A DNA stretch of 64,000 bases from Amphiscolops sp. MND2022 (lineage: Eukaryota): the NCBI GenBank assembly GCA_964187785.1, contig OZ076409.1:19346001-19410000 (forward strand), given 5' to 3'. Below are positions 23,294 to 49,205 of the stretch, piece after piece. A program made the translations under genes and the position numbers. The notes under the pieces are model-generated. The model had not been told where the DNA came from, did not search any database, and worked only from the letters and a program-made list of their open reading frames with translations. Position 1 is the stretch's first letter, and the number at the start of each line of letters is the position of its first letter.

Positions 23294-23470
<177 letters not shown>

Positions 23471-26805: not shown

Positions 26806-26828
26806 AGATTATTAGATTTAATGCATCC

Positions 26829-27035: not shown

Positions 27036-27245
27036 ATGAGACCCAAAAACTCGAAGCCAACAAAACTTTATAGTAGATGTATTATTTGTTTAGAGGACTT
27101 TAGATCAGTAGAATTACAGAGCTTTCATAGAAAACATTCCTTACATTTAGCATGTAGAGACTGTTTAGATTCCCTTTTTGTATATTCAGATGTATTTAAA
27201 TGTCCATTATGTAGAATACCTGTAGATAACATTGTATATTCTTAG
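27036..27245 (+). CDS. 69-aa RING-finger-only protein (variant ligand order C2-H2-C4), paralogue A
   Basis: CIIC-x15-HSLH-LAC-RDC-x13-CPLCR; clearly homologous to 40517-40735, with a conserved MR start. Confidence 0.8.
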   Translation: MRPKNSKPTKLYSRCIICLEDFRSVELQSFHRKHSLHLACRDCLDSLFVYSDVFKCPLCRIPVDNIVYS

Positions 27246-27287
27246 TTTTGTAAATTTTGTAGTTTATTTTATTAGTTAATTTACGGA

Positions 27288-27621
27288 CAGGGGTGTTAAA
27301 AGTCTCCCTTTTTTGTTATTTAAGACAACATTAGGTCATTACTGCCATTTAGTCCATTCACCCATCTGGGTTCAATCTTTCAGTGCATTTCTTTTTGGTT
27401 CATTGGATTTTGCATGTGGTGTTAAAAGTCTCCCTTTTTTGTTATTTAAATCAATATTAAGTCATTACTGCCATTTAGTCCATTCACCCATCTGGTTTCA
27501 ATCTTTCAGTGCATTTCTTTTTGGTTCATTTTGTCATTTGGTTCATTTTTGGTTCGTCATTTTGGTTTGTCATTTTGGTTCATTTTGTCATTTGACTAAA
27601 CGATAATTTTTAACACCCCTG
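27288..27621. mobile_element. hAT-like MITE with an internal ~128-bp tandem duplication
   Basis: TIR CAGGGGTGTTAAAA...TTTTAACACCCCTG; 8-bp TSD not recognisable. Confidence 0.7.
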
Positions 27622-27624
27622 TTC

Positions 27625-27703
27625 GAGACCTTACAGAGGCCACGTTCTCGTCGTGGGTCTTGTTAAAGGGTGACACTATGTGATCCCCGAACTGAGAGCC
27701 TCT
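27625..27703 (+). ncRNA. HDV/CPEB3-like self-cleaving ribozyme candidate, copy A
   Basis: P1 GAGACCU/GGGUCUU with G1-U wobble; P3 ACG/CGU; L3 UUCUCGU; single-pair P1.1; P4 hairpin; CNRA joiner; P2 AGAGGC/GCCUCU. Confidence 0.72.
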
Positions 27704-28307
27704 TTAAAATTACAAAATTTTGGGCTAGTGTTATTGTATGTTCTGATTTCTGATCAGAACATTAACAAAGGCCCAACATTTCGAAAATGTGTCATTGTGA
27801 AAATCAGTAGCAGTGCTGAAATCTAAACACCATATTACATCAATTGAGAATGCATTATGGGTTCGCGGCGTTGTACCATCTGCAACTTGGAAGCAAAAAA
27901 TTGAAAAATCATTTTTTTTTCAAAGTTGTGGAAAATTACTTTTTAATCATTTTCCTGAAAGAGTTTGAGTTCTTTTTATGCTCTACAGATTTTTTTTGGT
28001 TTACTTGGTCTCAGAAATTTTTTTGAGGGTCGGAAAATTAACTTTCAATATATGTACGTCAGACAATTCTGTAAAGTTTTAAATGATTCATTTTTTAAAG
28101 CATAAATGATTTCATGTTTAACGCGTTTCCTCTCCTCTTGAACTGGGAAGAACAGACAAAATGCCCCTGTAATCTCTTGGTTCCCCACGGTTGAATCTTT
28201 TAGGTAATATGTCTAACAAAACAATACACATCAAATCTCAACCCAATCACATTGCGTTTCCTTCGCTCAGTCCTTTTCCAATTTTTGTCAATTTTCACTG
28301 TCTCATA

Positions 28308-28518
28308 GGAGTTCCCACCTTTCATGTCCCACCTTTTGCCCGTTCCACCAAAGTTTATTTAAAAAGGGGTCAATGTCCCACTAAGTCTGCTTTCCTCAAA
28401 TCACACAATCCTTTAAGAATTTTCACTCAGATTCAATTGGTCGTGTACGAAATAGACCCCACTTTTTACTAGGCCTTGGTGGGACGGGCACAAGGTGGGA
28501 CATAATAAGTGGGACGCC
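28308..28518. mobile_element. MITE-like pair of inverted GTGGGAC-family repeats
   Basis: Left GG.GTTCCCACC...GTCCCAC and right ...GTGGGACGCC are imperfect reverse complements. Confidence 0.55.
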
Positions 28519-30019
28519 ATTTCACACATAGTGTTTTCGTTCAAAAACATTTCTCAGGAACCCTGGTCACATTGTAATTCTTTTAGAACATTTTTCTAAG
28601 GAAACGATACAAAGATAGCCGGCATTTGAAACCATACTGCATTTATTGCGACAAAATTCAATTGGCTGACGACGCAATTCATTATAGCGGAAAGTTTTTG
28701 GCTGGTGAAAACTTGTATTTCGAGATTCGAAAAGATTCGAAAAGAAAACATTATTCCATCGCTCTAAAAATAAATCGTTTCATTTAACATTTACATAATA
28801 GCCTCTTACAATGGAACAAAATGAGGACAGTTTCTCAGCCAGCAGTTGTTACGCCAAGACCCACCAGGGCCAAGTAAAAAATATCCTGAAATTAACCTTT
28901 ATATTAATATCTTATATATTATATTTATTTTTCATTATATTGTTACACACGTGGTACCCTTAGTCTCTCACTGCGCGTGAGCGTCGTATTTTAAATACTC
29001 AATGGGTTCGACATGCACTGGAAAGTTTTTATCAACCGCATTATTGACAGACGATTCAACGATTTTTTTTCTAAAAACGGGCTGTCACTTTCTAGTTTGG
29101 CCTCGGTGGTGTCCTTAAAATGTTCCTAATTTTTTGACTTTCTGAGGCTGGTGTTCTTATTAAGGTAATCTTACAAAAACTGGGTGTAGTCTATTCATTG
29201 TAGTCTATGCTATAATCAATCAATAACAGTATTTTAAAATAGCTTTATTAAAACAAAATATATGTAGAATTGAATAAATAGTTTTGAAAAAAACACAAAT
29301 AGTTAATAAATAATTTCTACTCGTATTTTAGAACGCAATTCTACAACATTTCCAAGACACATGCTTCTTTATTTCTACTACATACATAGACTTTTTACCA
29401 AATTGACCCACTATAAGAATTATTCATAACAAAAACAACAACATGTTAGAATGACGCACTTTGGACAAAACGAGGTCAATCACCAAAGAAATATACCTTT
29501 CTTAGTGGGACATACAACGATAACAGCGACTTCTCCGTCTCATTCCGAGGATGCGGTTCATACCTGATCAAAAACCTGTTCAAATCATGGTACTTGGTGG
29601 AGCATAAGGTGGGGATATGCAGTAGTTATTCTAGAAGAAGCAACATAGCACGCGAAAGAAAGCAAATGAACAAATCTCATTGGCCGATCAAGGTCTCACG
29701 CGCTCATTTCATTGGTTGAGAGCAACGTGCAAAACATCAGGTTTTAGTTTTTTGAATTTTTGACCCACTTACAATTTTTTGATTTCAAATCGTTTCCGAC
29801 TTTGCTGTTCCTAATTACTTGATTATCTATAGCCGGTTAGGTTACCAAAGTAATTCACTTTGAACTATATCACAACTGAACACCGAATAATTACTCGCGA
29901 ATAATTTTGGGACAATTGTGGCTAGGACGTTTTTGGAAGGGGTACTGTGGAACTCCAGTTCTTTCTCAGTCTCTTTGAACTCAGTCTGTTTAGTCTAGTC
30001 TGTAACACCTAATCTACTG

Positions 30020-30361
30020 ATGCCTTGCCACAAACTATTTTTGAACTTACAGTGGGTAGTTCCACAAGAGCTCAAAAACCTCGATATTGAGGTAGTTACA
30101 ATCACAAAAATATATTGGACCTTCAGAGGAAAAGTCATCAGAGTTTGTTTCTTTGGAATTCAATTCAACCGCTCTCATCCGCTACCCGTGAAAAAGACCC
30201 CAACCAAATTCAACATACACCTTCACCCTCAGTCAAAAAGTTTCAAGGACTTGTACGAAGTGCTGTGCTACCATGCTCTGGACAACAAGGATCCACTACT
30301 GGAAGAACTGCTGTGCTTTATGTCCAGCAAGGAGATTTCTTTCGAAAAACTATTTGACTAG
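30020..30361 (+). CDS. 113-aa orphan ORF, unknown function
   Basis: ATG start, globular-looking composition, higher GC than flanks, paired ATTGG (CCAAT) boxes at ~29680-29716. No recognisable domain. Confidence 0.4.
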   Translation: MPCHKLFLNLQWVVPQELKNLDIEVVTITKIYWTFRGKVIRVCFFGIQFNRSHPLPVKKTPTKFNIHLHPQSKSFKDLYEVLCYHALDNKDPLLEELLCFMSSKEISFEKLFD

Positions 30362-30700
30362 TCTTTGGACAAATCATTCTTTAACATAAAACTCTAATTG
30401 CACGCACTTATTGTGTTTTTTGTTTCCATTTGTATCAGCCTATTCATTTATAAAAAAATAGTTGTTTGTGTAATTGTTTCAAATATTTGTTCAGTTGATT
30501 TTCTGTTTTAGTAGAAACTTTTTGAAAAAATTGTTATTGATTATTTGAATATTGACATTTAAACATGATTACAAGGTAATGGACCATGTCATCAATCCCC
30601 CCCCAAACTGTAGAAAAATAAGACACAAGGTTCAAATACCATTATGTCGACATCGTTTGCATTGAAATTTTTAGAATTAGTGAATATTCTGCTTCGTGAC

Positions 30701-31126
30701 CAGGGATACGCAATAAATAATTAACTGCAAAATAACTGCAATTTTTCTTCAAAATAATTTATTCCTTGACGTAAATATTATTTAAAATTAATTTTCAGGA
30801 GTTAGCTATAAAAATAACTGCGGAAAAACTGGGTCAAACTTCTAAATTATTTAATATTAATATTTCTGTGGAGTAATGCGTAAACAGGCGTTGAAAACTG
30901 CATATACAAACCTCATTATTCTGCATTAAAAAATAGTCAAACTGTTCAAAGTTTGTTGATTCCTGATGATAATTAACATTCTGAATATTGCGTTTTGACA
31001 AAAAAATTTTGCAATTAATAATTTTTCAAAACCAAAAATTGTAATAATTTATTCAGCAGGCCAAAAAATATTAACTTTTTGCTGCGTAAAAGCAATAGTA
31101 TTGCAATATTTTATTGCATATCCCTG
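30701..31126. mobile_element. hAT-type MITE
   Basis: TIR CAGGGATACGCAATAAA...TTTATTGCATATCCCTG; perfect 8-bp TSD TTCGTGAC. Confidence 0.9.
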
Positions 31127-33924
31127 TTCGTGACACCCTTCCATATGGTCCAAGGTAATTTAAGTTTTGAAACCAAAATATGTTCTTTTCTGTTACTTCC
31201 CCCATAGTAAGCGCAAAAATTTTAATTCAATTTTTAAAGAGATGCGGTTACTAGATATATACCTACCTCATGAACCTCCATTACCTATAAAACTGGACCC
31301 TATCCGAACGCAGCAGCAAAACAACATTTTGTGGTAGTTATAATCAGATCCAGAAAAAAAATTATAAAGAAACGCAATGTGGTTGAGCATGAAAAGGTGT
31401 TATATTGACCACGAAAAGCACGCCTATTTTGATTCTCAAGCTAGCTTGTTGCATAGCTGGAGAATTGAAGTTCATTGAACGACGGAAAGAAGCGCAATGA
31501 GATTGAGCATACGTGCAACGGGTCTGCCAAGTTGCCTTTGTTTATTTAATTTACATGTACATGTTGCTCCTAAAACTATAGCTTACATGTACAAGGTAAT
31601 ACAGTCCTGTGATAAAAGAATGGAACCACAAATTGGTAATAATATTTGGAACACCTAATTTTTCTGCCCATATCTCTGAAACTATTGATATTCAAGAAAA
31701 ATGTCTCAAATAAAAGTTTCTCAAAATTTAACCTAGTTTATATTTGTTTTTTTGAAACTTCTGTGGCAAATATTGGGGGAAACTAGCTCCCAATACCTCT
31801 CTATGTAAAAGTTGGTTTGTCAACCAAGTTTCGAACCTTTTCTGTTTATTCCCTACCAGTTAAGCGGACAAATGAAATTTTGATTGAATTAATAGTAACA
31901 AACAATCAAATTGCAGTATTTTATAACTCTAACTGCAACTGAAACTCATCGCTGATAGTGGTGGGGAATTAAAGTTTCCGCGCTTACTGTGCGGGGGGGG
32001 GAAGGGGGGTATGAACAAAAAAGATCCGAAGTTTTTAATTTTTGCCAAACAGTTTTGATTAGTTTTTGTTTATCTACCGGTTATTAGACGAGTGGAAACT
32101 AGACAAAAATCCAAGAAACTTTTGTTTTTAACATATTTCGGAAAATTCGACAGTTTTTGAGAAATTTGCAATCTCATTTGGTGTTCCCCCCAAAACACGA
32201 AAGCACTTTTTGTTCTCTAATAAAACAATTTCACTAATAAGACAAAATTATCGATAATCAATAAAAACGGCACGAACGGAGCTAAATAGTCGCTCAGGCA
32301 GGTTGGATGTTGACTTAATCCTTGGGCTAAAATAAATAATTTTTTTGTATTTATTGAAAATTATGTATCAATAAACTATTTATTTTGCACCCCTGGGTAC
32401 AGTTAGTTCTAAAATATCGCAACTCCTTTGCTTAAACTTTCTTAGAATGTTATCTAGTTTACAAAAATGTTTTGGAATTTAAAAAGAGTATTTCATTTCA
32501 AAAAAGAACTAATTCCGTTTCTATCTTATACAAAAATCTCCCAAAAGCTATTCAAGTGAAAGTTTCTCAATTTTTCAATAAGAGTTGAGGCGTTGAGGCA
32601 ACTAGCGTTGGTGGGACATAGACACCTTTTTACTAGGCTTTGGTGGGACATGCATTAGGTGGGACATAAAAGGTTCGCCATATGAATGAGTTAAAGTAAA
32701 CAAATAAGAATTAAAAGCCGAATGGTTAGAGCAATAGATTCGGAGTCTGATGAAGAAGCTGAAAGTATCTATCGATGTCTTGAATTCTATTTCTGTAGCT
32801 TGTTAACCCTAACTGGACCAAGAAAATTCCGGATCCACCCAAAACTCTGGTGCTAAAATATTGAGGCCTTTTTGAAATGATCTAGAACAAAATATTTTTG
32901 CAGTTTTGCGGGAGGTATAATACTCGGTCACTTGGATTTGTACGTAAACTCTAATATGCTACGGCAACTTAATTCCAATTCGTTCAATCATATTTTGTAT
33001 ATCACTGTAGTTCAAATGTGATAGTATCACAAATGTTTCTCAAGTTGAACAAAGCAGACTTAGTGGGACATAGACCGCCTTTTTACAAAGCCTTGGTGGG
33101 ATGGCCACTTCTTTTGAAAAAAAATATAGGGCCATTGCTTAAAGAGGTGAGCCTTCTCGATTCCAGTATGAATTTTTTTATGTAAGAAAAAGACGCTTCT
33201 TGTAAAAAGTCGGCGCCAAAAAAGGCGCATAGTGCTGAAAAAACCCTAAGGGCGGACACTTTAGTCACCCCTCTACTTCTGGAAGCATAAGAAAACTTTG
33301 TGGTTTAGTGCCAGAGATCGACAAACCTTTGCAAAACCATGGGACCCGAATAATCGAGTACGAAATGACAGCCATGATAATTCGAGCATTGTTTCGATCA
33401 ATTTGTTTTGGATATTTCCGTCATTTTCTCCCAAAGCCATTGTCTATCAAATTGCAACTGTTAAATGAACGTAAAAACCTATAGGGTTGTCTTTACAGCT
33501 CTTTTGACATTAGCAGCAAACAAGGCTACTAAATTTATCGCTATGTACCAAACTTTATCAGTTGAAGACAGGAATTGGAAAATATCAATTGCAATTTAAT
33601 TTATTTTCAAAAATGGCACAAAAAATTAATTGCACTTTTCGAAAAACTCCAATTCAATTGATCAATTATTTGGCAATTAATTTCAACGAAAAACATTTAA
33701 AATTTCATTCATACTATCACAATCAAAAATAATGTTTGTGTGAAAGGACAAAACAAACTTTTACTAAACAAAGCAAGGAATAGATAAAAGATAGAGTTAA
33801 ATAACGATGTTTTTCGTCAATGATTTGACTCCATTGATCATTCAAGCTCCTAACACTGATCGCAAAACACTATCAAAACACCTTAATCTTCAAAATTTCG
33901 TCACTTTTCCTACGAAGTATCCAA

Positions 33925-34574
33925 ATGCTGCTCTGTGCCGTTTGTGGGGAGGAACTGTACAACCTTATTTGGTGGCTTGATGAGAAACACGCAATATGCC
34001 GGGTGTGCCGTAAGGCTTGGATCAAAAGCCTAGAGAGGTGAGTTTTACAGAACCTTGCTTTTGAAGTTTGTAGTTGAAGCTGACAATGTTTTTTACTTCA
34101 AAAGTTTCCCATATTTCCATGAACAAAATTCCAAAAACTTTCGTTATTTCAAAGATAGTTTTTTGATGCCATGAAATTATTACTTTTGAGTAATTCTTGA
34201 TACGTTGAGTAAAGTAGAATTAGTGGGACATATACCCCCTTCTTCACTAGACCTTGGTAGGACGGGCATTAGGTGGGTCATGAAAGGTGGGACATGAAAG
34301 GTGGGACGTCCAATTAGACGTTCAAAAATTATTGAAATTGGCAAAAAAATTGTTGGAGCTAACATTCTACAAAGTGTCTAATCCCCTGCACATTGACTCC
34401 GTTTCCAGATCAAGAATTAATAAAACGGAACAAAAAGTTTGAAATGAACTAACTTATTCATGATTGTGTTCATAAATTATCCATACTGTGATTTACAGGC
34501 AAACGACCACTGGCAGCATCATTTGGGTGAAGTGCCCTCAGTGCAGGAGAGAGAGCGTGCTTAAATGGAAGTGA
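33925..34574 (+). CDS. Spliced 62-aa RING-like mini-gene (exons 33925-34037 and 34499-34574)
   Basis: AG|GTGAGT donor and TTTACAG| acceptor in phase 2 give MLLCAVCGEELYNLIWWLDEKHAICRVCRKAWIKSLERQTTTGSIIWVKCPQCRRESVLKWK*. The splice unites CxxC..HxxCxxC with the terminal CPxCR. Confidence 0.75.
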
Positions 34575-34667
34575 GAGGTTGATCCAATTTCAGAAATTAT
34601 AAAACTTTTTCAAATGAACTGATTTTATTTTTATTTACATTGACTTTGTATAAAAAAAACAATAAAC

Positions 34668-35125
34668 GGACCATGTGATCTATTTCCCCCCCAGGTACAC
34701 CTTGTTAGGAAAATCCCCCCCATTACGAAAGCACATTTTGTTCTTGAATAAAAATATTTCGCTAATAAGAGAATATTATATGAATGTAAATACTTAGAGG
34801 ATTGTCTCCACAACTGTTTGGACACTTCAGGCAAAAAAATATCATATATTTTTTTTGATATTATTGTCCAAAATAGCAGAAATTCACGTTGGGAACATGC
34901 TAAAATTGTATAAAAAGGCCCTTATTTAGCGCAAATTTTGTCCGCTATAAAATCTAATGAGCAACTTTTAACTGACAGTCAATGTAATTGATAGGATTAT
35001 GTCGACATCAATTATTTTATTGGACTAAAATTTCAACGCAACGATGTCGACATAATGGTATTTGAACCTTGTGTCTTATTTCCCCCCGCCGCAGTTTGGG
35101 GGGGGGGAAATAGATCACATGGTCC
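34668..35125. mobile_element. Merlin-like MITE (related ends at ~19720-19830 and 30581-30670)
   Basis: TIR GGACCATGTGATCTATTTCCCCCC...GGGGGGAAATAGATCACATGGTCC; perfect 8-bp TSD CAATAAAC; GG...CC termini. Confidence 0.85.
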
Positions 35126-36317
35126 CAATAAACTTGTTCAATCACATTTTTTCATTAGTAAACTCAATTCTTTTTTTCCTTTTTCTCCGCCAGGTCTTCC
35201 ACATTTGTATTGCAATATCATTGCGGCTCTCAATAATTTATTTCTATTGCGCGCTGAGGAAAAACAATTATCTAGACAAAATATACAAATACGTCCAAAA
35301 ACGCCCGGTTTGAGTAATTATACTGCGCGAGGAAGTGGAGAAGGACATTGCTTTCAATACCGCTGCATTATTGCCACGGTGGAGGCGATTGGAACATCAA
35401 CAATCACAGTTGTATCTATTCCATGCAATATCTGGTGGTATCTATTGCAATAATTTCACAATATATTTTACAGTCAAATGAGTTATACAATTATATAACT
35501 TTTGAAACATTTTCTGCCGACCCGAGTTCCCTGTTATTATGGAGAAATTGAATGGCCTCCGCATGCAGTGGTGACAATGCATGTCGCAAATGAGTTTGTG
35601 TCAACCAATGCGACACAATTCTATTGGCTGACGACGCAATTCGTCATTGCAGAATTATTTTGGCGATTAGATACATAATTTTTATTTCAAGATCCAAAAA
35701 TAAATCATTTTTCTTCCATGATCTCAAAAATAAATTTTTAATATATATTTGTTGCAGGTATTTCCATTGAAGTAATTTTTTCGGTAACCCTGGTCAATAT
35801 AAAATTATTTTTTAGAAATAGTGAAGTCATTTGTTTTTGAATTATTACGTCAATATTTGGTCGCCCTGAAGATCACGAACCAAATAATATGAGCAAATAA
35901 CACAAATATCTCAAATAGAAGTTGTTTCAAATATAATTTTTCAAATAGAAGTTGCCCCCGAATATAAGCCGCCCCCGATTAGAGCCACATTAAGCATGAA
36001 AAATTTATCCTAAATGCCATTGCTTACCGTATTTCTTCGAATATAAGCAGCAAAATTACTGCAGAAAGAAAAACGGTAAAAGAATTAAGGTAATAATAAT
36101 GATAACGTTCCAACTAACATAATTTAGTTCGTTGTGATGGGAATTGAACTGATAAAGAAACGCAATGTGATTGAGCATGAAAATTGCATTCATCATTCAC
36201 AACCTACAGCTAGCTTGTTGCATAGACTGGAGTTCATTGAACGACGGACGGAAAAGAAACGCAATGTGATTGAGCATGCTTTTGTCATTAGCGTACATGT
36301 AACGAGGAACGTTCTAC

Positions 36318-37606
36318 AGTAGCCTTCTAACATATCGCAACTCAATTGTGCAAAAATGCAAGTTTCAGATCAAACTATCTTAAAAACTATCAGAAATACG
36401 AAAAATTGTCAGTTAAGAAAGTTTCTAAGAAATTTATCTAGTTTACAAAAATGTCGATTTGAAATTTCTGTGACAAAAAATACTTTAGTTAGAAATTGCA
36501 ATTTTGACAAAATTTAATCAAATTTGTATTTTTTTTTCTGGATTTCCATGAGGTTGAAAGAATTATTTGAAAAACTCAGTCAATCATTTGCCCCCAAACC
36601 TCCTTAGGACAGGGGTTGGCAATAAATAATTATTGAAAAAAAATTGTCAATAAATAAATAAGAATTATTTATTTCGAGATCGAAGAAATAAAAATAAATT
36701 ATTTTCCTTGGTAAATAAATTTTACAGTAAACTGAAACGTATTGTTGCGGGATAATTGAATTGTTAGTAGAATTTGAGTGGACGCCGAGAGCTGTGATTT
36801 GCTAACCGAGCAGTATTCACAAATTATAGAAAGGAGACATCTCCAATCAAACCTAGAGGCGCAGATATTCCTCCAGTTCAATAAAGAATACATATTGGAA
36901 TGTCAGGACTGTAGCAGATTTGATTGAGTTTTTTTATTGATTTTATTTTAAATAAGTTCAATAATTTATTTTTTCCCAAGCACAATAAAAATTATTTATT
37001 GCTAGGCTTGTATTGTATTGCAATACATTATTACCAACCCCTGCCTGAGGATGCTGATATAAGTTTAACGGAACACTTTTTTGATTTCAAAGAAAAATCA
37101 TCAATTTTCTAAATACAATTCTTATAACCAATCTTAATACAGGTCCCACCTTTTATGTCCCACTTAATGCCCGTCCCACCAAGGCCTAGTAAAAAAGGGG
37201 GTCTATGTCCCACCAACTCTGGTTTGGTACACGTAGTTCAGTGCTCATAGACACAAAATATAGTGTATTTTTTTCGAACAAATTTCTCAATCAAAACAAT
37301 TCAGTAGGTTCGGGAGATTAAAGAAAGTCTCCGAATCAAATAAAAGAATATATTAAAAAAATCAATTCTAAGCTACTCAATTTTCGAAAAACTCCAATTT
37401 TAACTAAAATTTTCTAAATATTGCAATTTTCAACTTTTTTGGTAACGGTTGTAGAAATTTCAAACAAACATTTTTGTAAACTAGATAAAGTTTTCAGAAA
37501 CTTTCCTAGCTGGCAAAAGTTTGTATTTGTGACAGTTTGAGAAATTTGGTTTTGAATTTTGTCATTTTATACTATGAGGTTGCGATATTAACAGAGAACG
37601 CTACTG
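36318..37606. mobile_element. Tc1/mariner-type non-autonomous element with long degenerate TIRs (same family as 41328-43530)
   Basis: TA|CAGTAGCCTTCT...AGAACGCTACTG|TA; ~170-bp imperfect TIRs; contains nested insertions. Confidence 0.75.
36610..37043. mobile_element. hAT-type MITE nested in the previous element
   Basis: CAGGGGTTGG...CCAACCCCTG; TSD CCTTAGGA/CCTGAGGA (7/8). Confidence 0.85.
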
Positions 37607-38069
37607 TAGAGTATATCTAAATCTTAATATCTTGAAAACTGTCACAAATTCAAAAAACTGTCAGCTGAGAAAGTTTGAGAATTTAATCTAGTATAAAATA
37701 CTTGCCAAAATTGCATTTGTTTTTTTTAAGTTACAGAAAATTAAATGCATTCAGTTTGGTTTCGTAAGCGTTGGTGGGACATGTACACTTTTTTGCATGC
37801 CCTTGTTGGGACAGGCATTAGGTGGGACATCGCAAGATGGATGAGTTTTAAACTGAAAAAATTTATAACGAGTTCAATTTAACAAAAATGAAATTCATTT
37901 TACTAAACATAAATAGGAACCGGAAAATAGTTGATTTTTTGGGGGGCAAAATAGTTGATAAAATAGTTGGTAAAAAACGGAATTGGTAAAAAAAATATTG
38001 AATTTGTCATGTCTTACAAATGGAAAACTCTACAAACTACAGAAAGTTTTAGTTGGCAAAATCCACCAC

Positions 38070-38526
38070 CAGGTATTGGTAAAGATTAATTGCATTGCAA
38101 ATAATTGCATTCATCTCTCACAATTGATTGATTGTCAGCCGTCGATAAAACCAATTCATCGATTGCAAAACATGCAATTAACTGCAATTATAGACTATAC
38201 TTTTCGTTTCAATTCACTTTATATTTTGCCTACATCGAATCTAGCCGTTTTTTTCAGCATGGCGGGATATGTCTGATAAGATTTGTGTCAGAGAATAATC
38301 CCACGTAAACTGGAATCTCAATTATTTCTCAAAGTGAACTTTCATTTGTGGCGTAAATACACTTGTGGAGACAGCTATCTTTTAAAAAGTTAAACTTTGT
38401 CTAGCTGCTTTTTTGTTTGAATTTTGCAATTAATTTCAGTGATTGATTGCAAAAACGACCAATTGAAATTAATTGTTTCCAAAAAACAGCTACCATATAA
38501 ATTCAATTAACTTTTACCAACCCCTG
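38070..38526. mobile_element. hAT-type MITE
   Basis: CAGGTATTGGTAAA...TTTACCAACCCCTG; TSD TCCACCAC/TCAACCAC (7/8). Confidence 0.8.
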
Positions 38527-39249
38527 TCAACCACTATTTGGTTAAGTAAAATTTAAGGTGGTTTCCCAAATTCCCAAATGACATAAATGCAAATAACAAA
38601 AATAAATTTATTCCCAGAGAACATAAAAGTTTATTGAATTCCCATTTAACATAAAAATTAAATATTATTATAACGTAGTCAGATATGTTCACATACCCCT
38701 AGTGCCCTTTAAAACAATGCTGTGGAAATGTTAATGATTTTAATCAAAAAACCAACTAACCAACATGAAACGAGTTAGGTCACCAATAAGTTAGGCTTTG
38801 TATAACATAGTAAAACAGAACTAAAGGAAAAAGATAGAAGTAGTTCCAGGAATCCTCGAAACTCTTCACGGTAATCTGTAAGCTAAGATTGAAACCGACA
38901 AAAGTTTTGAGATAATTGGTCTTGGAAAGACAAGAAAATCAGAGGAATTAGGCGGGGGAAAATAAGTTCATCAAAACTGAATTTTAACTCAAATCAATGT
39001 TGCTACTTGGCGAAGGAAGCGTATGCAAACCTTTTCAAATAAATCAAGTTCCAACATATTGGCTGTAACAGCACTAAAAGCTAGTATTTTGAATACTGCT
39101 GTATGGGTCCAAGTTTTCATTTTCTGCTGTATGAATAGGCACCTTACAATACCTTCACAGTACATGTATTCAGAGCAGCAACGTTCTACTTAAAGGGCAT
39201 TGACAATTCGGGCAAGGTGCGAATTTGCTGAAGCAAAATAGTTTTGTGG

Positions 39250-39333
39250 CGTTATGCTCGGCTGCTATCACACAATCATCGCACGTTATACACCGTTGTA
39301 CAACGTGCGATTGTGATAGCAGCCGAGCATAAC
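39250..39333. repeat. Imperfect hairpin/palindrome
   Basis: CGTTATGCTCGGCTGCTATCACA...ATCGCACGTT / AACGTGCGAT.TGTGATAGCAGCCGAGCATAACG. Confidence 0.85.
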
Positions 39334-39895
39334 GTCATCACAGTTCGTTTCCATCACATTATACATGTAACTGTAGGAAACGAAATGTGATGATTCATAA
39401 GAGATGAGCATGCTATTGTGCCTGCTGCTAGCAAGCAACTTCACAACTCTGAAAAAGAAGCACCGTGTAATGAGCATGTAAAGTTGATGAATTCCCAAAT
39501 AACATTTGAACTTATGTTCGTTTACGAAACCAGAGTTGGTGGGACATTTATAATATAAATAATAAAATATAAATGCAATAATCTTTGGACGAATCATTCT
39601 TTGGCATGAAAATATAATGAAAATATAATTGCACTCAGACTTTGTATATTTTCGTTTCAAAGTTCTACCCATTCATTTGAAAAAGAATATTTGAATTGAT
39701 CTCAATTGAACTCAATGATTGTAATCAAAATGACAAAACTCAACCTAAAGTAAACCGCTAAACTTTTGTGTGCATGTTCTACCAATGCTCGTATTCAGAA
39801 ACTTTGATTGTCAGAAAAAATGTCGGGCTGAAGTGAAAGTTATGATCAAAAATCACAACCTTGAAACACTGACACCCATTATCATGTATTTTCAA

Positions 39896-39973
39896 AGAGG
39901 CTCTCAGTTAGGGGATCACACGGTGTCACCCATAACAAGACCCACGCCGAGAACGTGGCCTCTAAGGGGTCTC
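39896..39973 (-). ncRNA. HDV/CPEB3-like self-cleaving ribozyme candidate, copy B
   Basis: GAGACCC CUU AGAGGCC ACG UUCUCGG CGU GGGUCUU G UUAUGGGUGACACCGUGUGAUCCCCUAA CUGA GAGCCUCU; same fold as copy A. Confidence 0.7.
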
Positions 39974-40018
39974 AAAAATCTAAGTTTACAAATTCTAGTA
40001 CAAAAATATGCTAACTGC

Positions 40019-40494
40019 CAGAGCTTCCGAAATTTTATTTGGGATCAAATATTTCAAACAAATTGAACCAAAATCAATGAATTGATAAGAGAAACTTGCA
40101 AATTCTTCATCACTTTTTCGCAAGAGCTGAAGCATTAATTTCGGTAATAAGACTTTCATGCCAAGATAGTCTATTCATCTTCGAAAATTTCACGGGTTCA
40201 TTTGAAAATAACTCATCTAAAACCATCTAAGGCCTAATACGCGGTAGTAAAGAAGTTTTTCATATAATTAGAGGTCTATGAAATCAAAATCAATATAATT
40301 AGGCATTTTTGTGTTTTCCGTTTTTTCATCATTATTTCTAGTGTGCGTCACATTTTATTGCTTCATTCCAGGCAAAAAATCACAATTAATTGTAAAAATT
40401 TCAGTCAATTGATTGCCATTGACCTGTCTAAATCAATTAATTGCATCCTAATAATTACAGTTGAATAACTGCGAGTTAAAACTCGGAAGCCCTG
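40019..40494. mobile_element. hAT-type MITE inserted between RING paralogue B and its ribozyme
   Basis: CAGAGCTTCCGA...TCGGAAGCCCTG; TSD CTAACTGC/CTAACTAC (7/8). Confidence 0.85.
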
Positions 40495-40516
40495 CTAACT
40501 ACCATTTTACAAAATT

Positions 40517-40735
40517 TTAATTGTACAAAATACAATTTACAGGTAATCTACAGTAAGGACATGTAACAACTGCACTTGCGAAACTATCTAAATAATGTTT
40601 TATACAATCTCTACAGGCTAAATGTAGACTATGTTCTAGATGGAAGCTTTGAAGGTCTTCTACTCTAAAGTTTTCGAAGCAGATGAGGCAATCTTTTGTG
40701 CATTTTATAGCTTGAGGCTTCTTTTTCACCCTCAT
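40517..40735 (-). CDS. 72-aa RING-finger-only protein (variant C2-H2-C4), paralogue B
   Basis: MRVKKKPQAIKCTKDCLICFENFRVEDLQSFHLEHSLHLACRDCIKHYLDSFASAVVTCPYCRLPVNCILYN; shares LQSFHxxHSLHLACRDC with paralogue A. Confidence 0.8.
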   Translation of the reverse strand: MRVKKKPQAIKCTKDCLICFENFRVEDLQSFHLEHSLHLACRDCIKHYLDSFASAVVTCPYCRLPVNCILYN

Positions 40736-41177
40736 CGTTGTGACACCTAGAAACTCGAAACTAATAAGCATGGTGCACGGACATACAAAGGATTTGCGAC
40801 GGGGGTCCTTCATTTACAGGGTGAGGTGTCACGAAGCAGAATATTCACTAAGCCGAAAAATGAAATTTTGCGAAAGTGAATTGGTTTCCTCAAGCCTTCG
40901 AACAATAAACCTACAATAACTTAAATTATTTATTTTCTTGATTATTCCCTTGGCCATACATTAATGGGAAACATATGTGTTCCATACATTAATGGAAAAT
41001 AAAATAAACCATTAATAGCCATTATTTAAACATTATTAACCGGTCAAAATTAAAGCATTGTGTGCAAAATACTTACAAATTCGTACATCAAATGCGATTT
41101 ACATTAATTAAACCACGTTCCATTAAATTTTGACAGTCCCTGCGAACCTTACACCCTTGGCTGGAATTAATTAACTG

Positions 41178-41327
41178 AACATCACACCGCGTAGTTAATT
41201 CATATAATATTACCTGGAAATCACACCGCGTTGCTATTTCATTGAATATTACTCAAAATCACACCGCGTTGCTATTTCATTGAATATTACTCAAAATCAC
41301 ACCGCGTTGCTATTTCATTGAATATTA
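41178..41327 (-). repeat. Inverted-orientation array of the 38-bp minisatellite; resumes at 43531-43596 and 43955-44005
   Basis: AAAATCACACCGCGTTGCTATTTCATTGAATATTACTC units are the reverse complement of the 16.6-17.5 kb unit. Confidence 0.9.
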
Positions 41328-41863
41328 CAGTAGCGTTCTAAAATATCGCAACCTCATTGCATAAAATAGCAAATTTCAAATCCAAATATCTCGTAAACTG
41401 TCACAAATACGAAAAACTGTCAGCTAGGAAAGTTTCTTAGAATTCTATCTAGGTTACAAAATTTGTTTGAATTTTCTACGACCCTTACTGAAAAAGTTAG
41501 AATTTTCAATGTTTTGTTTTCATTAGATTAGGACTTCGTCAGCCGAATTTACTGGCTCTAGTTTTACTTCTTGTCCGCTTCCAAAGCTTCTCTAATATAT
41601 AATTCATTTTCCTCTCTGCGCGTTTCTCGGTCTACGTTAACTCAAACAATTTAGAGCTTTGTACTACAGAAAATGACTGTATATGAAAAAATTAATTGAT
41701 CATCTAAATACAAAAATATATATGAAAAGGTCAAATCAACAAGTTTCTTCTGTTGAAGCAGTAGTGAAAGAGTGGCTCGAGAGGGCTTATAATTTCTTCT
41801 TTCTGCTGTACTGGATTTGATTTGAGGGGTACTGGTTGTGTTTAGAGCTAAGCCCTGAAAGGC

Positions 41864-42094
41864 TTAACGTCTCCAGATGTCATCGAAAATGATCTCTTCA
41901 TCGTACGTGTTTTTTTGTGTAACTTCGTACTTTGTTTTCCCGTTGGGGTAGAACACTTTGCAGTAGTAGCAAAACCCAACTTTGCGTGGGGTATTCGACT
42001 TTCCATGTAATTTAATAACTGCGTTTTCGCTGTTTTGTGAGATGAGTTTATCCATTGACCTGGCAAGAGAGGCTGATTGATGGCAGAATGACAA
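41864..42094 (-). pseudogene. Left-arm copy of the foldback cargo ORF, truncated by a short deletion
   Basis: Mirror image of 42682-42912 up to DDIWR, then a small deletion causes a stop. Confidence 0.4.
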
Positions 42095-42681
42095 CAGAAG
42101 GAGGCGAGAGATTGAATGATGACAAAAAAGAATAGAGACTGGATTGTTTGAGTTTGTTTGGCAACAATGAAAGAAATGTAATTGAAAGCCAAACTTTTTG
42201 GTTAACCCTTATTGGTTGAAATACTGTTTTGATGTCAGAATAAAGTTATAATAAAGTGTTTGGTTCTAATTATTTAATTGTAAATGGCTTTTACCATGCC
42301 GTCTTTTTCGTACTAAAATTTGACGTACTACAATACAGTCAGAATTAAACCTTGTGTCTTTTTTTCCCTTGCGGTCGCTTGGGGAGGGGGCATTTTGCGC
42401 AATTAATGACAAAATACAATTACCTTTGAAAAAGACGGCATGGTAAAAGCCATTTACAATTAAATAATTAGAACGAAACACTTTAATATAACTTTATTCT
42501 GACATCAAAGCAGTATTTCAACCAATAAGGATTAACCAAAAAGTTTGGCTTTCAATTACATTTCTTTCATTGTTGCCAAACAAACTCAAACAATCCAGTC
42601 TCTATTCTTTTTTGTCATCATTCAATCTCTCGCCTCCTTCTGTTCTCATTCTGCCATCAATCAGCCTCTCTTGCCAGGTCA

Positions 42682-42912
42682 ATGGATAAACTCATCTCAC
42701 AAAACAGCGAAAACGCAGTTATTAAATTACATGGAAAGTCGAATACCCCACGCAAAGTTGGGTTTTGCTACTACTGCAAAGTGTTCTACCCCAACGGGAA
42801 AACAAAGTACGAAGTTACACAAAAAAACACGTACGATGAAGAGATCATTTTCGATGACATCTGGAGACCGAACAATAATCTTCACGTTAAGCCTTTTAGG
42901 GCTCAGCTCTAA
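42682..42912 (+). CDS. 76-aa orphan ORF (CYYC motif) in the right arm of the foldback element
   Basis: ATG start, CCAAT at ~42522. After the TAA the frame stays open for ~35 more codons, so it may be a damaged longer ORF. Confidence 0.35.
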   Translation: MDKLISQNSENAVIKLHGKSNTPRKVGFCYYCKVFYPNGKTKYEVTQKNTYDEEIIFDDIWRPNNNLHVKPFRAQL

Positions 42913-44158
42913 ACACAACCAGTACCCCTCAAATCAAATCCAGTACAGAAAGAAGAAATTATAAGCCCTCTCGAGCCACTCTTTCACTACTGCTTCAACA
43001 GAAGAAACTTGTTGATTTGACCTTTTCATATATATTTTTGTATTTAGATGATCAATTAATTTTTTCATATACAGTCATTTTCTGTACCAAGCTCTAAATT
43101 GTTTGAGTTAACGTAGACCGTCCCACCAAGGCCTAGTAAAAAAGGGGGTCTAGGTCCCACCAACTCTGGTTTCGTAAACGCCGAGAAACGCGCAGAGAGA
43201 GGAAAATGAATTATATATTACACAAATATTCGTGTTTTTCAAAAAAGGGGTATTAGCCAACAGAGAAGCTTTGGAAGCGGACAAGAAGTAAAACTAGAGC
43301 CAGTAAATTCGGCTAACGAAGTCCTAATCTATTGAAAACAAAACATTGAAAATTCTAACTTTTTCAGTAAGGGTCGTAGAAATTTCAAACAAACATTTTT
43401 GTAAACTAGATAGAATTCTAAGAAACTTTCCTAGCTGACAGTTTTTTGTATTTGTGACAGTTTACGAGATATTTGGATTTGAAATTTGCTATTTTATGCA
43501 ATGAGGTTGCGTTATTTTAGAAGGCTACTGTACTCAAAATCACACCGCGTTGCTATTTCATTGAATATTACTAAAAATCACACCGCGTTGCTATTACAAG
43601 TCCGAAAATGAATTTGGGTTGCACAAGTCCGAAAAGTACTTAGCATATTTGTTGTATGGCTCGGTCGCTTCGCTCCCTTCGGCAAGTAGCAACATTGAGG
43701 CATGGTCATGTGGCACGTCGTTCCGCTTCGCTTCGCTCCTGCATTTAGGGCACTAGGAGTATGTGAATATATCTAACTGGGGGAAATTGAAAAATTCATT
43801 TTTTCATCTTTGAACGGACTTCGTTCCTGTTCGACCACGTCAGCCAATCAGATTGCAGAGAAGTATGTGTGGTAAATCTTGAACGACGCTGGATTTCTGA
43901 AATCTTATTGGACGAGAAAATTTTAATTTTATCCTTCGGACTTGTGACCCGACACCGCTATTTCATTGAATATTACTCAAAATCACACCGCGTTGCTATT
44001 TTAATGGAAGTACGTGTACGTTTTGAAATACCATATGTAATAAATGAGCGAAAGCTGTAGTAAATAAAGCGAACTTTTTTCAAATGTCAATGATTTCAAA
44101 ATTTGAACTGAAATAGGTTAGAAATGATTAGAATATAGGGATTCCATTCGTTTATCAC

Positions 44159-44534
44159 CAGGGATGTAAAATATTGTATTTAAATATTTATCTTAAAAAA
44201 AATAAATATATTTAATAGTTGCTGACTAACAATGAATATATTAAATATATTGCCCAATTTTGTGCGAGGAGAAAATATATTGTTTTTATAACCCTCAATA
44301 ATTTTAACGAAACTTCCTGAAATGGCTCTTCGCGTATTTCGCGTGAAAGATCAAAATTCTACATTTCTTTTAATACTTGCAAACATTAAAATGAATATCA
44401 AAATATAATGGCCCAAAACACAAATACATTGGATCAAAAAATAAATGAATTGCCTTGTACAAAACCACAAATAACTATATTTTATTTATTCATTGTCAAT
44501 ATATTTAAATACAATATAATTTTTTACATCCCTG
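44159..44534. mobile_element. hAT-type MITE
   Basis: CAGGGATGTAAAA...TTTTACATCCCTG; TSD TTTATCAC/TTTATCCC (7/8). Confidence 0.85.
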
Positions 44535-44760
44535 TTTATCCCCGGACTATGTTATTTGGAAATTCACCATTACAAAATTACGTATTGAATCAAAAATTAC
44601 GTACTGAATCAAAGACTTTAACAGATGATGAAAATCAATGATGGATTTCTAACACAAAAGTTTCATTTCTAACGTTAGAAACATATTGATAACACTTTTG
44701 TTGAAAAAGATTTCTCACTAAGTTCAATGGAAAAATTAACTGATTTCGTGCAGCATTTTT

Positions 44761-44930
44761 GGATCTTTTCTGTTAATCCCCCCCCACCAGTTTAATTCCC
44801 CCCAGTTAAACGGTCAAGTGAAATTATCACTGAATTATTAGGAACAAACAATCAAATTGCAGTATTTTATAGCTCTAACTGCAACTGAAACTCATCGCTG
44901 ACAGTGGTGGGGAATTAACAGAAAAGATCC
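44761..44930. mobile_element. Merlin-like 170-bp MITE
   Basis: TIR GGATCTTTTCTGTTAAT...ATTAACAGAAAAGATCC; TSD GCATTTTT/TCATTTTT (7/8). Confidence 0.8.
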
Positions 44931-45709
44931 TCATTTTTTTAAAGGTAACGACATTCGGCCGTAAAGTTTCTCTATGAAATGTTTAAAATGGGAATTTTCC
45001 GCAACTGCAAAGTTTGTATTCGATGATAGGAATGTTATTAACGATTAGGTATCAAATAAAATAAGAACAAATAGCACAAAATTAGGTTCAATTAAAATAA
45101 AAATGAAATTAATTTCGAACAACATAAAAATAAAACCTAATACCAGGTTAAGTAATCGAACTCACGAAACTTTATTTTTAATTTTCATACTTTTTTGAGT
45201 GAATCTTTTGAATTGTGAATGCTTTTGACAGCTAAAACTTTCTCGTAAACAAGCTTTCTTTCTGTTTATGTTTAGTCAAACTGATTTCAGTTTCATGTTA
45301 TTTGAAACTATTTTCGTTTTTATGTTATTTGCTCTTATGTTATCTGGGAATTCACCCGTTATTAACATGAACGCGCTTGTTAACATTAATCCATCACTGA
45401 TGAATGTTGAGAGAGTTGACAAATAATCCGCTTAAAGTAATCCAAAATGAAGACAGGAAGTTGCGGATAATGCAAACAAATGCAAAGCGATTCAAATGAT
45501 GCAAACAAAAAGACGATGATGAGGATCAATCGGAGAAGAATTCTGAGAAATCTGAGAATTCTCAATTGTCAACGAAACTGAAATTTTGTAAATCCGTTAC
45601 GAACCATGCTGGGACTGAACGAAATTTTCACCGAATGTCAGGACTGCTGTGACGTCATGATTAATATGATTTGTAGTTGATTACGTAATATGATTTGTAC
45701 ATGTAGTTG

Positions 45710-46295
45710 TGGTCAGTATTTCTTTTTTGTTTTCATTTTCCTCGTTTGTGTGTCGAACAAATTAATCTATAAATGCTATAAATTTCGCTAAGGCAAATAT
45801 AATTTCTCCTTTCTGAAGCGTTTGTAAGAAAGCTTATTCCAAAAATTAAACTGAAATAACAAATTAGGACCTTCAAATTTTTGTGCTCAGTATTTCATTT
45901 CTGTTTCATTTAACTCGTTTGCGGTGGGGGTTTATTGAATAAATTAATATTTAAATGCTAGAGTTTCGCTGAGGCATATTTAATTTCTCTATTGTAGCCC
46001 ATGTAAAATATAAACTGAAATAACTAATTAGGACCTTCAAATCTTTGTGTTCTGTTCTTCTTTTTGTTTCAATTAGCTCGTTTGCGTGGGGAGGGGGGGT
46101 GAGTTATTGAACAAAAAATAATGTAATAGTTTATAAATGCTAGAAATTTCGCTAAGACATATATACTTTCTCAATTCTGAAGCCCTTTTAAAAAACGTAT
46201 TCCAAAAAATAAACTGAAAGAACTAAATAACTAATTAGGACCTTCAAATCATTGTGTTCAGTATTTCTCTTTCTCTTGTTTCAGTTTACTCGGGG
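45710..46295 (+). repeat. Diverged tandem repeat, ~180-bp period, ~3 units
   Basis: TAAATGCTA..A.TTTCGCT.AG and AATTAGGACCTTCAAAT each recur three times. Confidence 0.85.
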
Positions 46296-46689
46296 GGATG
46301 GGCAAAATTATGCCAAATTTGAGACATTGAAGACAGTTTTTGTTGTAATAAACCAAAAAATTTTAAACCAAAAATAAATAATTTAATAGAATTTTTTGAA
46401 GGTTATTTATCAAATAATTTTTTATTTTATCAAATTAACAATCAAATCAATTGATAATTTTTAATTATCAAATAGTTTTTTATTTTGCACCCCTCATGGT
46501 GGGGGATGGTGAGGGTCTTTAAATAAATGGGTCTGTTGGGGGACTTCATTATCTTTTTGTTATTTATTTTGTTGGGGGATTTTTCATCAGAAAACTCAAC
46601 TCTACTAATTGTCATTACTGTTAAATCTCAGTATTATTCTTGGTGGAACTTCAATCGTTTTTAGCGACTGCACAAAACTGGAACCGATC

Positions 46690-47352
46690 AGGGTTTGTCC
46701 TGTTCAAAAACCTGTTCAAAACTTGGTACTTGGTGGGACAAGCACTTTGGGGCATACCCTGTCGGACATATCATAAATGAATCATAGTAATGCGGTGTTA
46801 CAAATGAAGCAACATGAACTATAAAGAGGTCAATCACCAAAAGAAAATTATCATACTTGGTGGGACTCACACCGATAAAAACGATTCGAGTTCCGACTTG
46901 ACGATCCGATGTCGGCGTTCGTCCCATTTCAAAAACCCATCACTTGGTGGGACATACACTTTGGGGAGTCGTCGACCAATCAGAAGCCGAAGTGTTTTAC
47001 CCGCGTTGGTGGGACATACACACAGAATTCTCGCCGACGAATCAGCGGCCGAGACGCATGGGGCCATTTCACGCATTGTTGGTGGGACATACACACAATC
47101 CGTTTAACCAATCAAAAACGCGGATTTCATCGATGACAACTTTTGGCCGCTTGTCGGCGCTGTAAAAATGTGTAGGTGTGGAGTGTAAGGCACTTGGTGG
47201 AACATTTTCTCAAATGGTTTCTTATTCAATTTTAGGCATTTTGCACTATGTGTGAAATGGTGTCCCACTTATTATGTCCCACCTTGTGCCCGTCCCACCA
47301 AGGCCTAGTAAAAAGTGGGGTCTATGTCCCACCAACTCTGGTTCCGTACACG
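46690..47352. mobile_element. Larger member of the GTGGGAC repeat family; partly homologous to 29470-29620
   Basis: Multiple TTGGTGGGACATACAC units and an inverted terminal copy ending at the (TG)n at ~47356-47372. GAGGTCAATCACCAAA and TCAAAAACCTGTTCAAA are shared with 29.5 kb. Confidence 0.55.
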
Positions 47353-49205
47353 CATGTGTGTGTGTGTGTGTGTACATTACAATTGTTGTACCACACAAGT
47401 ATTAGCACTCGTGGGTTGAATAGCCGAACTGCAATATTGCAGAACATTTTATAGCAGAACCGAATCGAATTCTTAAGTGTTATTGGTCGCTATGTTCGAC
47501 AGAGAGCTTCGATCTATGAATTTATCATACAACTTCGCAACAGGTCAGAATGAATAAATATAAAGCTGAGATGATACGCGACCGTGCAGTTGTAAAACCG
47601 CTCAACTGACCGACTTTGCAGTTAGCCGACCCAATTGAATATGATTGGATATGAGTGAAAACATTCTCAATTTTGTTATGCAACTATAAGTAGCATCGTG
47701 TGAAAAAGTTAAATGCGCATCAAAAATTCCATGTGAACAGGCTTACTATTTTTTTTTTAAAAAAATAAATGATTCTGAATCAATCTCTTGATATCTATGA
47801 AAACCTAATTTCATTAATTTTCAAAGTGATAAATTCCATTTTGGGTCTAATTCCGCTCTTCTGAAAGTATTCAGTCGGCCAATTGCACAGTCAGTCAAAA
47901 CAGCCAGGTAGGATTTGACAGTAAGGTAGGTGGTAGTTTGCTAGCTTCGTTGCCCAATCAGATTTGAGATCGGATTTATATTGGTATTCCTTAAAGCTCT
48001 TTCGGTTATACGAACGGCTACCTTTTTCAACAACCCCTGTAGGAACAAAATCCGCTAATGCAAACAATGCGAATACAAAGTGTAGGCATGAAAAAACTTG
48101 GAAATTTTGTCGATTTATCAAACGAACCTTTACGATCTAATATTAGTTGCTCAAATTGCATTGCGATCGATGATTGGATTAGCGATTATTAATCGGTAAA
48201 TACAAATACCGATTAACCTTGGAACATCCCTGGTGTAGTGTATTTGCTTGAAAAGTCGCAGCTCTCTAGTATGTACATAAATAATACATACCACTTGTGA
48301 ATACTTACCCATCAATAACTTGTGGTAACTGACATTTTCCAATAATGGAAAACAGTTTGAATACAGATAACTTTTATAAAAACTTGTCCACACAACAAAA
48401 TAAAACGAACAAAGTATATGAAAATTATTAACAGTTGGCTTCTGGAAGGAACTGGTGGGAATTTTTCACTAAGAGCGTTTCCTACAAACTGTAGTCAAGC
48501 TGTGAGAGAATAATGCAAACAATAATTGATAACATCTAAATTTTAATGTGTTTTAACTCAATGATCTATTACATGCAACCATCATACATAAAAACATAGT
48601 CACCAAGTTAGATGAAAAAGTTTTGTTTTGCGCACTGAATTTCCAGAAAATCGGATGTCTGTAAATTGGATGTAAGAGAAAGGAAAACTCATTAAAAATG
48701 CATAACTGTTGCAGAAACTGTGCAGCAAAGCTGTGAATTTATTATTATAATTCAAGCAAAAAAGCGTCTGGTTAACTCTGTGTGTTCACATGAACAAATT
48801 ATCGAGGATCAAAAGAAAGCAGAGACCGCCATATAAGGAGGCTATAACCTTTTTTTGGTTATTGAGGCAGATAATTTATCACCAACTTTACGTCACCGAG
48901 GAGACCAAGACTACATGATAATGTGTGATAAAAACTCGGCACGGTGATAAAGATTGAAAAGTTTCACTAATTCGAGAAAATTTAATTAAACTGTCATAAA
49001 ATACGTATCCGCCATTCGGACTTCTCCTCACCTTTTTCGACCTCCCCTCGACAAACTAGCATTTTTTGTAGGTGCCATAACTTCAGACTATTGAGCGGTT
49101 AAATTTTTCTCTTGGTCAAAATGTCTGTTTTGTCATTTATAGATTGTTGGTCAGGATTCACCAATCGAATTTCGAAAAACTTTTTCTTTAATGAACTAAT
49201 TTAAC

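Follow-up and report, generated by a model that had tools for sequence, protein, structure and literature searches.

The cassette formed by a RING-only gene and an HDV-like RNA fold downstream of it is real, is under selection and is more than an arrangement of two copies, while catalysis by the fold is predicted from its sequence. We studied it in the genome of Amphiscolops sp. MND2022, of which a 64,000-nucleotide stretch (the window; positions are counted from its first letter) contains two such cassettes in opposite orientations, described in an earlier note.

The two cassettes of the window

On the minus strand the RING gene and, behind it, the ribozyme (copy 2) were found exactly where the earlier note had put them, as judged by the ORF, its Pfam match and the fold (Table 1). 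The ORF scores 23.6 bits against Pfam zf-C3HC4 (cut-off 21), and its product has a basic N-terminus, ligands in the order C-C-H-H-C-C-C-C, an Arg past the last Cys pair and a short C-terminal tail. The spacer between the stop codon and the ribozyme is 543 nt long. The hAT MITE with its own 8-bp target duplication, which had been said to interrupt this spacer, is present as a hAT-like insertion (terminal inverted repeats matching at 11 of 12 and target duplication at 7 of 8 positions), and its removal leaves exactly 59 nt, as had been estimated; uninterrupted natural spacers measure 49-57 nt (eight distinct ones). Since the MITE is common to the whole subfamily of the window, it predates the amplification of this subfamily. 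The candidate catalytic C of the fold is at 39907, and the cut is predicted 5' of 39973.

Table 1. Features related to the RING-ribozyme cassettes, in window positions
Feature	Positions	Strand	Remarks
Window copy of the ~50-kb carrier, family A	15140..47355	-	both cassettes inside
(ACT)n tract, then sequence resembling left ends of (ACT)n elements	23296..23530	+	
Paralogous RING ORF, copy 1	27036..27245	+	69 aa; ~51-57% identical to copy 2, depending on the alignment
Different inverted-repeat insertion	27288..27621	+	3 nt before the copy 1 ribozyme; without a clear 8-bp target duplication
Copy 1 ribozyme (27625-27703), hairpin and downstream arm	27625..28034	+	matches right arm of L259
A-rich linker and conserved 3' hairpin	39817..39895	-	ends with CCGACA and a T run
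HDV-like fold (predicted ribozyme), copy 2	39896..39973	-	P1 39973-39967/39943-39937, P2, P3, 7-nt L3, one-pair P1.1, P4
Spacer, 3' part up to the predicted cleavage site	39974..40018	-	begins with the second copy of the target duplication
hAT-like MITE	40019..40494	-	476 bp, 12-bp inverted ends
Spacer, U-rich 5' part (predicted 3' UTR)	40495..40516	-	ends with the first copy of the 8-bp target duplication
RING-only ORF, copy 2	40517..40735	-	72 aa and stop; passes Pfam zf-C3HC4

The description of the two proteins as well diverged, with both ORFs intact, holds (Table 1), and the pair is saturated at synonymous sites (pS 0.75, dN 0.39). Nucleotide identity of the two copies is highest in the ribozyme (87%), compared with 63% for the ORF and 65% for the 76 nt after the ribozyme, and it falls to 45% and 51% in the following two 100-nt blocks, shuffled sequences giving ~45%. 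The similarity does continue past the ribozyme, as had been noticed; its end, given earlier as ~90 nt, was measured at ~76-80 nt, beyond which identity is at the shuffle level. These 76 nt form a stable hairpin in both copies (z -3.2 and -7.4). The differences between the ribozymes, ascribed to J1/2, the last base of L3, P4 and one C-G/U-G exchange in P1, were all located there.

Linkage of the RING gene and the ribozyme

The linkage is one-way. The ribozyme lies downstream, on the same strand, in 60 of 60 RING loci, which were chosen by RING similarity alone (the best 30 of 150 for each of two queries) and represent about ten subfamilies, many of the loci being near-identical; in the other direction, 76 ribozymes were picked by their core among the first 100 of 737 listed matches, and a RING ORF within 1-3 kb upstream accompanies just 20 of them and is lacking in 56. 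In 15 cassettes, divergence of the ORF and divergence of the RNA are moderately correlated (Mantel r 0.42-0.44), and the occurrence of near-identical RING arms with different hairpins indicates that parts were exchanged. As to the idea that the ORF and the RNA fold travelled as one unit, co-travel stands on the 60 loci and on the Mantel correlation, whereas a mobile unit consisting of RING and ribozyme is contradicted by the 56 ribozymes without RING and by the absence of target duplications at the level of the cassette (around the module, only two short AT-rich matches were seen in 58 contexts). The suggestion of circular RNA received no support, as tandem copies break inside the ribozyme or away from it (in L3, in the hairpin or downstream) and not at the G1 cleavage site.

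At least two independent inverted-repeat insertions have entered RING-ribozyme spacers and stretched them to 330-870 nt, the ORF being kept. In several subfamilies (L191, L212, L221, L229) sequences like tRNA A and B boxes occur ~300-500 nt upstream of the RING start; ARAGORN called no tRNA there (none in seven loci).

The RING protein

The zinc ligands C16, C19, H35, H38, C41, C44, C59 and C62, the third of them His, are invariant in all eight aligned proteins and have the eight-ligand cross-brace spacing of RING E3 ligases. The best solved match is the RING of TRIM32 (E 1.4e-7). With RING E3 ligases (TRIM32-type RING-HC, IAP/MDM2-type C-terminal RINGs) the protein shares the Pfam families zf-C3HC4 and zf-C3HC4_3 and the conserved Arg after the last Cys pair; it differs from them in standing alone, with 69-79 aa, and in having His at the position of the usual third Cys ligand. 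Its close relatives number 54, every one a protein from an ENA assembly, and other proteins score only as generic RINGs. By analogy with its family, it likely functions as a minimal module of ubiquitin ligation, or else as a decoy, and so protects the element from silencing by the host.

Clustering of 50 distinct RING cores gave 15 groups, and a codon model was fitted to the 11 of these with at least three occurrences. Omega across these 11 subfamilies is 0.33 (2dlnL 39 against omega 1) and, after removal of the nine columns fixed by the search motif, 0.40 (2dlnL 25), in agreement with the earlier claim of selection on the ORF. Likelihood fits were used instead of pairwise Nei-Gojobori values, which were set aside because two of the 15 representatives, with internal stops, were mis-registered. 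The young copies of the window subfamily carry four synonymous, nine nonsynonymous and two stop changes; this is compatible with neutral decay, the changes being too few to be separated from it.

The HDV-like fold and the 3' hairpin

A search of the 1.07-Gb genome for the exact 22-nt core gave 737 matches, and for its reversed control none. For 109 distinct modules 34 representatives were chosen, one of which was excluded as mis-trimmed; pairing was analysed in the remaining 33 copies, less than 93% alike, with a hand-drawn HDV-like structure and the inner hairpin; the outer stem of the 3' hairpin was excluded from the count, the alignment being one column off between subfamilies. Paired cells make up 93.9%, against 85.0 +/- 0.6% in shuffles and 38-51% with slid partners, and two-sided changes were found in 14 of 34 pairs, in P1, P2, P4 and the hairpin, although kinship of the copies inflates these counts. 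This conservation of structure supports the claim that the RNA fold was under selection. Helices P1, P2, P3, P1.1 and P4 follow in the order of a nested double pseudoknot and are each 92-100% paired, the topology being that of HDV-like ribozymes (PMC4908430).

P3/L3 and parts of P1 and P2 served as the search seed, and their invariance is therefore circular. Outside the seed the candidate catalytic C of J4/2 and the G of P1.1 are kept in 32 of 33 copies each, G1 in 30 and two G of P2 in all 33, while J1/2 is only 37% identical and P4 65%, with compensatory changes. A near-invariant unseeded core accompanied by variable J1/2 and P4 is the pattern expected of a catalytic fold, as the predicted ribozyme would be. 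Rfam scans, including the HDV and CPEB3 models, gave no match to the window ribozyme; these models are lineage-specific, so that the miss lowers only the case for a known Rfam family. The minimum-energy fold of the ribozyme alone is unremarkable (z -0.6 and -0.3) under a method that cannot model pseudoknots. A J1/2 of 3 nt goes with slow cleavage in another HDV-like ribozyme, according to PMC4908430, and the equally short J1/2 here suggests slow cleavage by the predicted ribozyme.

Homology between unrelated contexts extends from G1 to the end of the hairpin, ~155 nt. Two matches to the ribozyme module came from a metagenome scan: one (L322) is genuine, the module being accompanied by (ACT)n and by an element junction, with a left end following; the other (L321) was rejected as a chance match inside a GC-rich prokaryote-like gene. 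In viral contigs the ribozyme core was not found.

Elements flanked by (ACT)n as likely parents

The likely parents of the cassettes were reached via the conserved sequence that precedes (ACT)n tracts. Two elements were recovered complete, one of 9,561 and one of 8,351 bp. Each has inverted ends and lies between two (ACT)n tracts, and they share one layout: (ACT)n, recombinase-like and SET ORFs reading leftward, the RING ORF reading rightward, 49-59 nt, the fold, the hairpin, ~300 nt and again (ACT)n. In two more diverged families the genes follow one another in this order as far as the right end. Altogether (ACT)n stands on both sides in four elements, the DNA beyond the tract being varied; the inverted ends are imperfect (~22-55 bp), and the ribozyme usually starts 460-600 nt from the right end. 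In two elements of 8.5-8.9 kb with related ends, searches for RING, SET and recombinase gave no match, and the fold has been retained at 478 nt from the end.

The leftward ORF carries the pattern R..K..NxIRK..AH..Y. Its six top Foldseek rows are Cre/Tre, all weak (E 0.1-0.3); many integrase/Xer structure rows reach up to Z 8.1 with middling fold scores, and of the members of its Atlas match set 17% have Phage_integrase. No sequence match to this ORF was obtained in Pfam or PDB, and relatives of the recombinase were not found in viral contigs. The SET ORF, which passes the Pfam cut-off in one family, is apparently continuous with the N-terminus of the recombinase across introns. Among ORFs of at least 140 aa in the two complete elements, only SET- and recombinase-like ones were seen and no reverse transcriptase. 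Of 26 listed recombinase matches on C1 and C2 (the scoring covered 150 of 750 candidates genome-wide), seven have a listed ribozyme within 12 kb, six of them in divergent orientation, as against a mean of 0.27 and a maximum of three in 5000 random trials; the remaining 19 have no listed ribozyme nearby.

A sense (ACT)n tract lies within 1.5 kb in 12 of 45 classes of downstream sequence (ten at 461-596 nt) and an antisense tract in one; some of these classes were picked by end sequence, and the core-picked sample gives 7 of 76 sense against one. In 33 of the 45 classes there is no (ACT)n within 1.5 kb. As most sampled ribozymes lie away from (ACT)n and most of the listed recombinase matches have no listed ribozyme nearby, the RNA module is not confined to (ACT)n elements.

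Larger carriers

Both window cassettes belong to a carrier of ~50 kb (family A), the window copy of which has a sharp end at 47355, an internal deletion at 33736 and an assembly gap at ~15140. Its siblings are 98-99% identical over tens of kilobases, reaching ~50 kb, hold two to five ribozymes each in both orientations and end in an imperfect inverted repeat, and (TG)n flanks the right end in three of three cases and the left end in three of six. Near the inverted-repeat end there are a JmjC-like ORF and an ORF with a recombinase-like pattern, which we take to be of CryptonV type. In the earlier note the second cassette was held to confirm the linkage; the same order is indeed present, but both cassettes lie in one multicopy element, and the second is therefore no independent landing. 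The arm of copy 1 is 97% identical over 430 nt to the right arm of the recombinase-bearing (ACT)n element L259 and is cut off ~70-90 nt short of the position of (ACT)n there. The window cassettes are best explained as fragments of arms, passive passengers in a larger recombinase element.

Several other features of this region deserve mention. Just upstream of RING copy 1, at 26079-26805, lies a near-perfect palindrome of 745 bp, and upstream of RING copy 2, at 41326-43532, an internal inverted repeat with ~700-bp arms (96%), which duplicates an ORF of 63-76 aa with a weak MORN_2 match; both occur in siblings as well. A 134-aa ORF without Pfam match (22623-23027) is found in both the ~50-kb and the 27.7-kb carriers. 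Short ORFs beside the left end of one sibling (L077/L078, G000:C13 ~40.372-40.375 Mb) resemble a packaging ATPase and HNH proteins and may be akin to Polinton-like genes. The non-LTR reverse-transcriptase ORF at 12382-13644 is outside the carrier and unrelated to the cassette.

The module is common to several giant DNA-type elements, having reached them by capture or by its own movement. An element of 27.7 kb (L251, L307 and L308 taken together; G000:C2:20038576-20066256) has 22-bp inverted ends and 2-bp target duplications in four of four copies and carries the cassette. Its copies are near-identical, and its cargo comprises SET-, BRCT- and JmjC-like ORFs along with an uninterrupted RING-ribozyme cassette. 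A family of more than 23 kb (L171-L176; G000:C2:56.42-56.45 Mb and 29.31-29.34 Mb; copies 99.6% identical) bears a ribozyme without RING, followed 700 nt downstream by an ORF of 644 aa that has no Pfam matches, and no recombinase match (among those listed) falls in it. RING-less modules also occur in other large repeats, and once the module stands upstream of SET/recombinase on the same strand. A reading of the carriers as Helitrons by their TC.../...CTAG-like ends was given up in view of the inverted ends, the 2-bp duplications and the (ACT)n flanks, and a reading as a SINE with an (ACT)n tail was given up because the right end is an inverted repeat of the left one. Apart from these elements, open frames of 2,300-2,850 aa with a C-terminal GIY-YIG domain and many clustered copies were encountered (L272, L275, L278, L283 and others), with a helicase-like P-loop upstream; their Helitron-like origin is a guess.

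Proposed function and alternative explanations

We consider it probable that the parents are CryptonV-like DNA transposons in which outward transcription of the right arm yields an RNA that the predicted ribozyme cuts. In the (ACT)n elements the right arm faces outward and consists of RING, the HDV-like fold and the 3' hairpin, and the fold is predicted to split the arm transcript 5' of G1, one product being a short RING mRNA and the other a structured 3' RNA. The cut would leave the RING mRNA with a 3' end that lacks a canonical poly(A) signal, and would uncouple it from read-through into the microsatellite and the host DNA; the 3' product, with G1 as its first nucleotide, would include the hairpin and is the part under the widest constraint. 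AATAAA and ATTAAA are absent from all eight short spacers, and the short U-rich spacers are rich in TTGTA (19 against 2.8 when shuffled); a poly(A)-like hexamer overlapping the stop codon in one short-spacer representative counts against a signal-less mRNA. Since the ribozyme and the hairpin are kept without RING, the RNA or the cut itself is suggested to serve the element, possibly by ending read-through at the terminus or, less likely, by acting in transposition. A further version strikes us as very improbable: the ribozyme would set the 5' end of a non-coding RNA running through the hairpin and the right end into (ACU)n, this RNA would have a role in recombinase transposition, such as directing the enzyme to microsatellites in the manner of a bridge or guide, and RING would be the host transcript only.

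Alternatively, the ~155-nt fold and hairpin might be an RNA parasite in its own right, ribozyme-headed and SINE-like, with reverse transcriptase supplied in trans and a preference for these DNA transposons, RING standing upstream only through one old inherited insertion. Of 62 context pairs with hairpins at least 88% identical, 27 break within 10 nt of G1 and 14 at both ends, which speaks for such a parasite, as does the lack of RING in 56 of 76 copies; HDV-like ribozymes also mark the 5' ends of non-LTR elements (PMC4908430). Strong constraint on the module alone, however, explains the breakpoints too, and the parasite is at odds with the missing target duplications (apart from the two short AT-rich matches in 58 contexts), with a distance to the right end that stays constant across diverged families and with the fact that this end is an inverted repeat of the left one and is no tail; we regard it as rather unlikely. 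A non-autonomous retroelement of Penelope or retrozyme type, in which the ribozyme would free monomers, possibly circular, from tandem transcripts and (ACT)n would be the priming site, could account for the tandem or inverted arrangement of some copies, an inverted one of which stops in the hairpin loop, and Penelope-like elements are described as biased towards microsatellites and as leaving copies that are inverted and truncated (PMC8557442). We give it little credence: the complete elements have no reverse transcriptase or GIY-YIG ORF (among ORFs of at least 140 aa), the best 30 of 88 GIY-YIG matches have no ribozyme match within 1.5 kb and look mostly like the helicase-linked long ORFs, tandem breakpoints are away from G1, and the fold is HDV-like and not a hammerhead.

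It is about equally doubtful that the fold does not cleave, now or ever, and that the module is a DNA or RNA binding site of the element's proteins. The lack of an Rfam match, the ordinary energy of the ribozyme-alone fold (z -0.6, -0.3, though the method is blind to pseudoknots) and a J1/2 of just 3 nt, tied to slow cleavage elsewhere (PMC4908430), would agree with this, whereas the near-invariance of the unseeded core (P1.1 G and J4/2 C in 32 of 33 copies, two P2 G in all 33) alongside variable J1/2 and P4 would not. As for a neutral segmental duplication with a chance resemblance to a ribozyme, the case named in advance as the one that would overturn the linkage, it has in its favour that both window copies are within one amplified element; it is refuted by an omega well below 1, by 87% identity in the ribozyme next to flanks at the shuffle level and by the two-sided changes of pairs, and we consider it hardly credible.

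Relation to known systems and significance

HDV-like ribozymes have been described for retrotransposon 5' ends, subviral RNAs and CPEB3. With the known ones (HDV, CPEB3, R2, L1Tc/RTE) the module shares a 7-bp P1, P2, a 3-bp P3, a 7-nt L3, P1.1, P4 and the C of J4/2, and its one-pair P1.1 and L3 look CPEB3-like to us. It differs from them in a bulge in P2 and in the separate conserved hairpin that always follows, and in location, for it follows a gene on its 3' side, close to where a DNA element ends, and does not head a retrotransposon RNA. No paper listed by the full-text searches is described there as pairing an HDV-like ribozyme with a RING gene or with the ends of a DNA transposon or Crypton; Repbase CryptonV entries may already include SET or RING cargo.

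With Crypton and CryptonV elements the (ACT)n elements share a probable tyrosine recombinase, the absence of a reverse transcriptase ORF and insertion into microsatellites, which CryptonV families also use (PMC8869645); this likeness is based on descriptions of CryptonV. Classical Cryptons are, according to PMC3212892, without inverted ends, and in contrast to them the (ACT)n elements have inverted ends, a SET ORF and the RING-ribozyme arm. A tyrosine recombinase is tied to microsatellite insertion in endogenous nimaviruses as well (PMC10871703), from which the elements considered here differ in size (8-50 kb) and in that no virus-like gene set was seen in them. Retrozymes and Penelope-like elements are likewise ribozyme-bearing dispersed repeats, some tandem or inverted (PMC8557442, 10.64898/2026.07.22.740005, PMC11167929); these use hammerheads and reverse transcriptase, neither of which was found in the RING-ribozyme elements (among ORFs of at least 140 aa for the latter).

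The HDV-like fold is thus a conserved, covarying part of apparent DNA transposons, present in at least 737 copies and situated downstream of a selected RING-only gene. Transposition by Crypton-type recombinases is, according to PMC13565253, a process not shown experimentally; if the fold does cleave, the (ACT)n elements would offer a compact system of 8-10 kb, with clear ends and a clear target, for its study. Cleavage would likewise mean that a natural mRNA 3' end, or the 5' end of a transposon RNA, is made by a ribozyme, and the non-coding-RNA version, should it be true, would add a ribozyme-processed RNA component to a eukaryotic DNA transposon.
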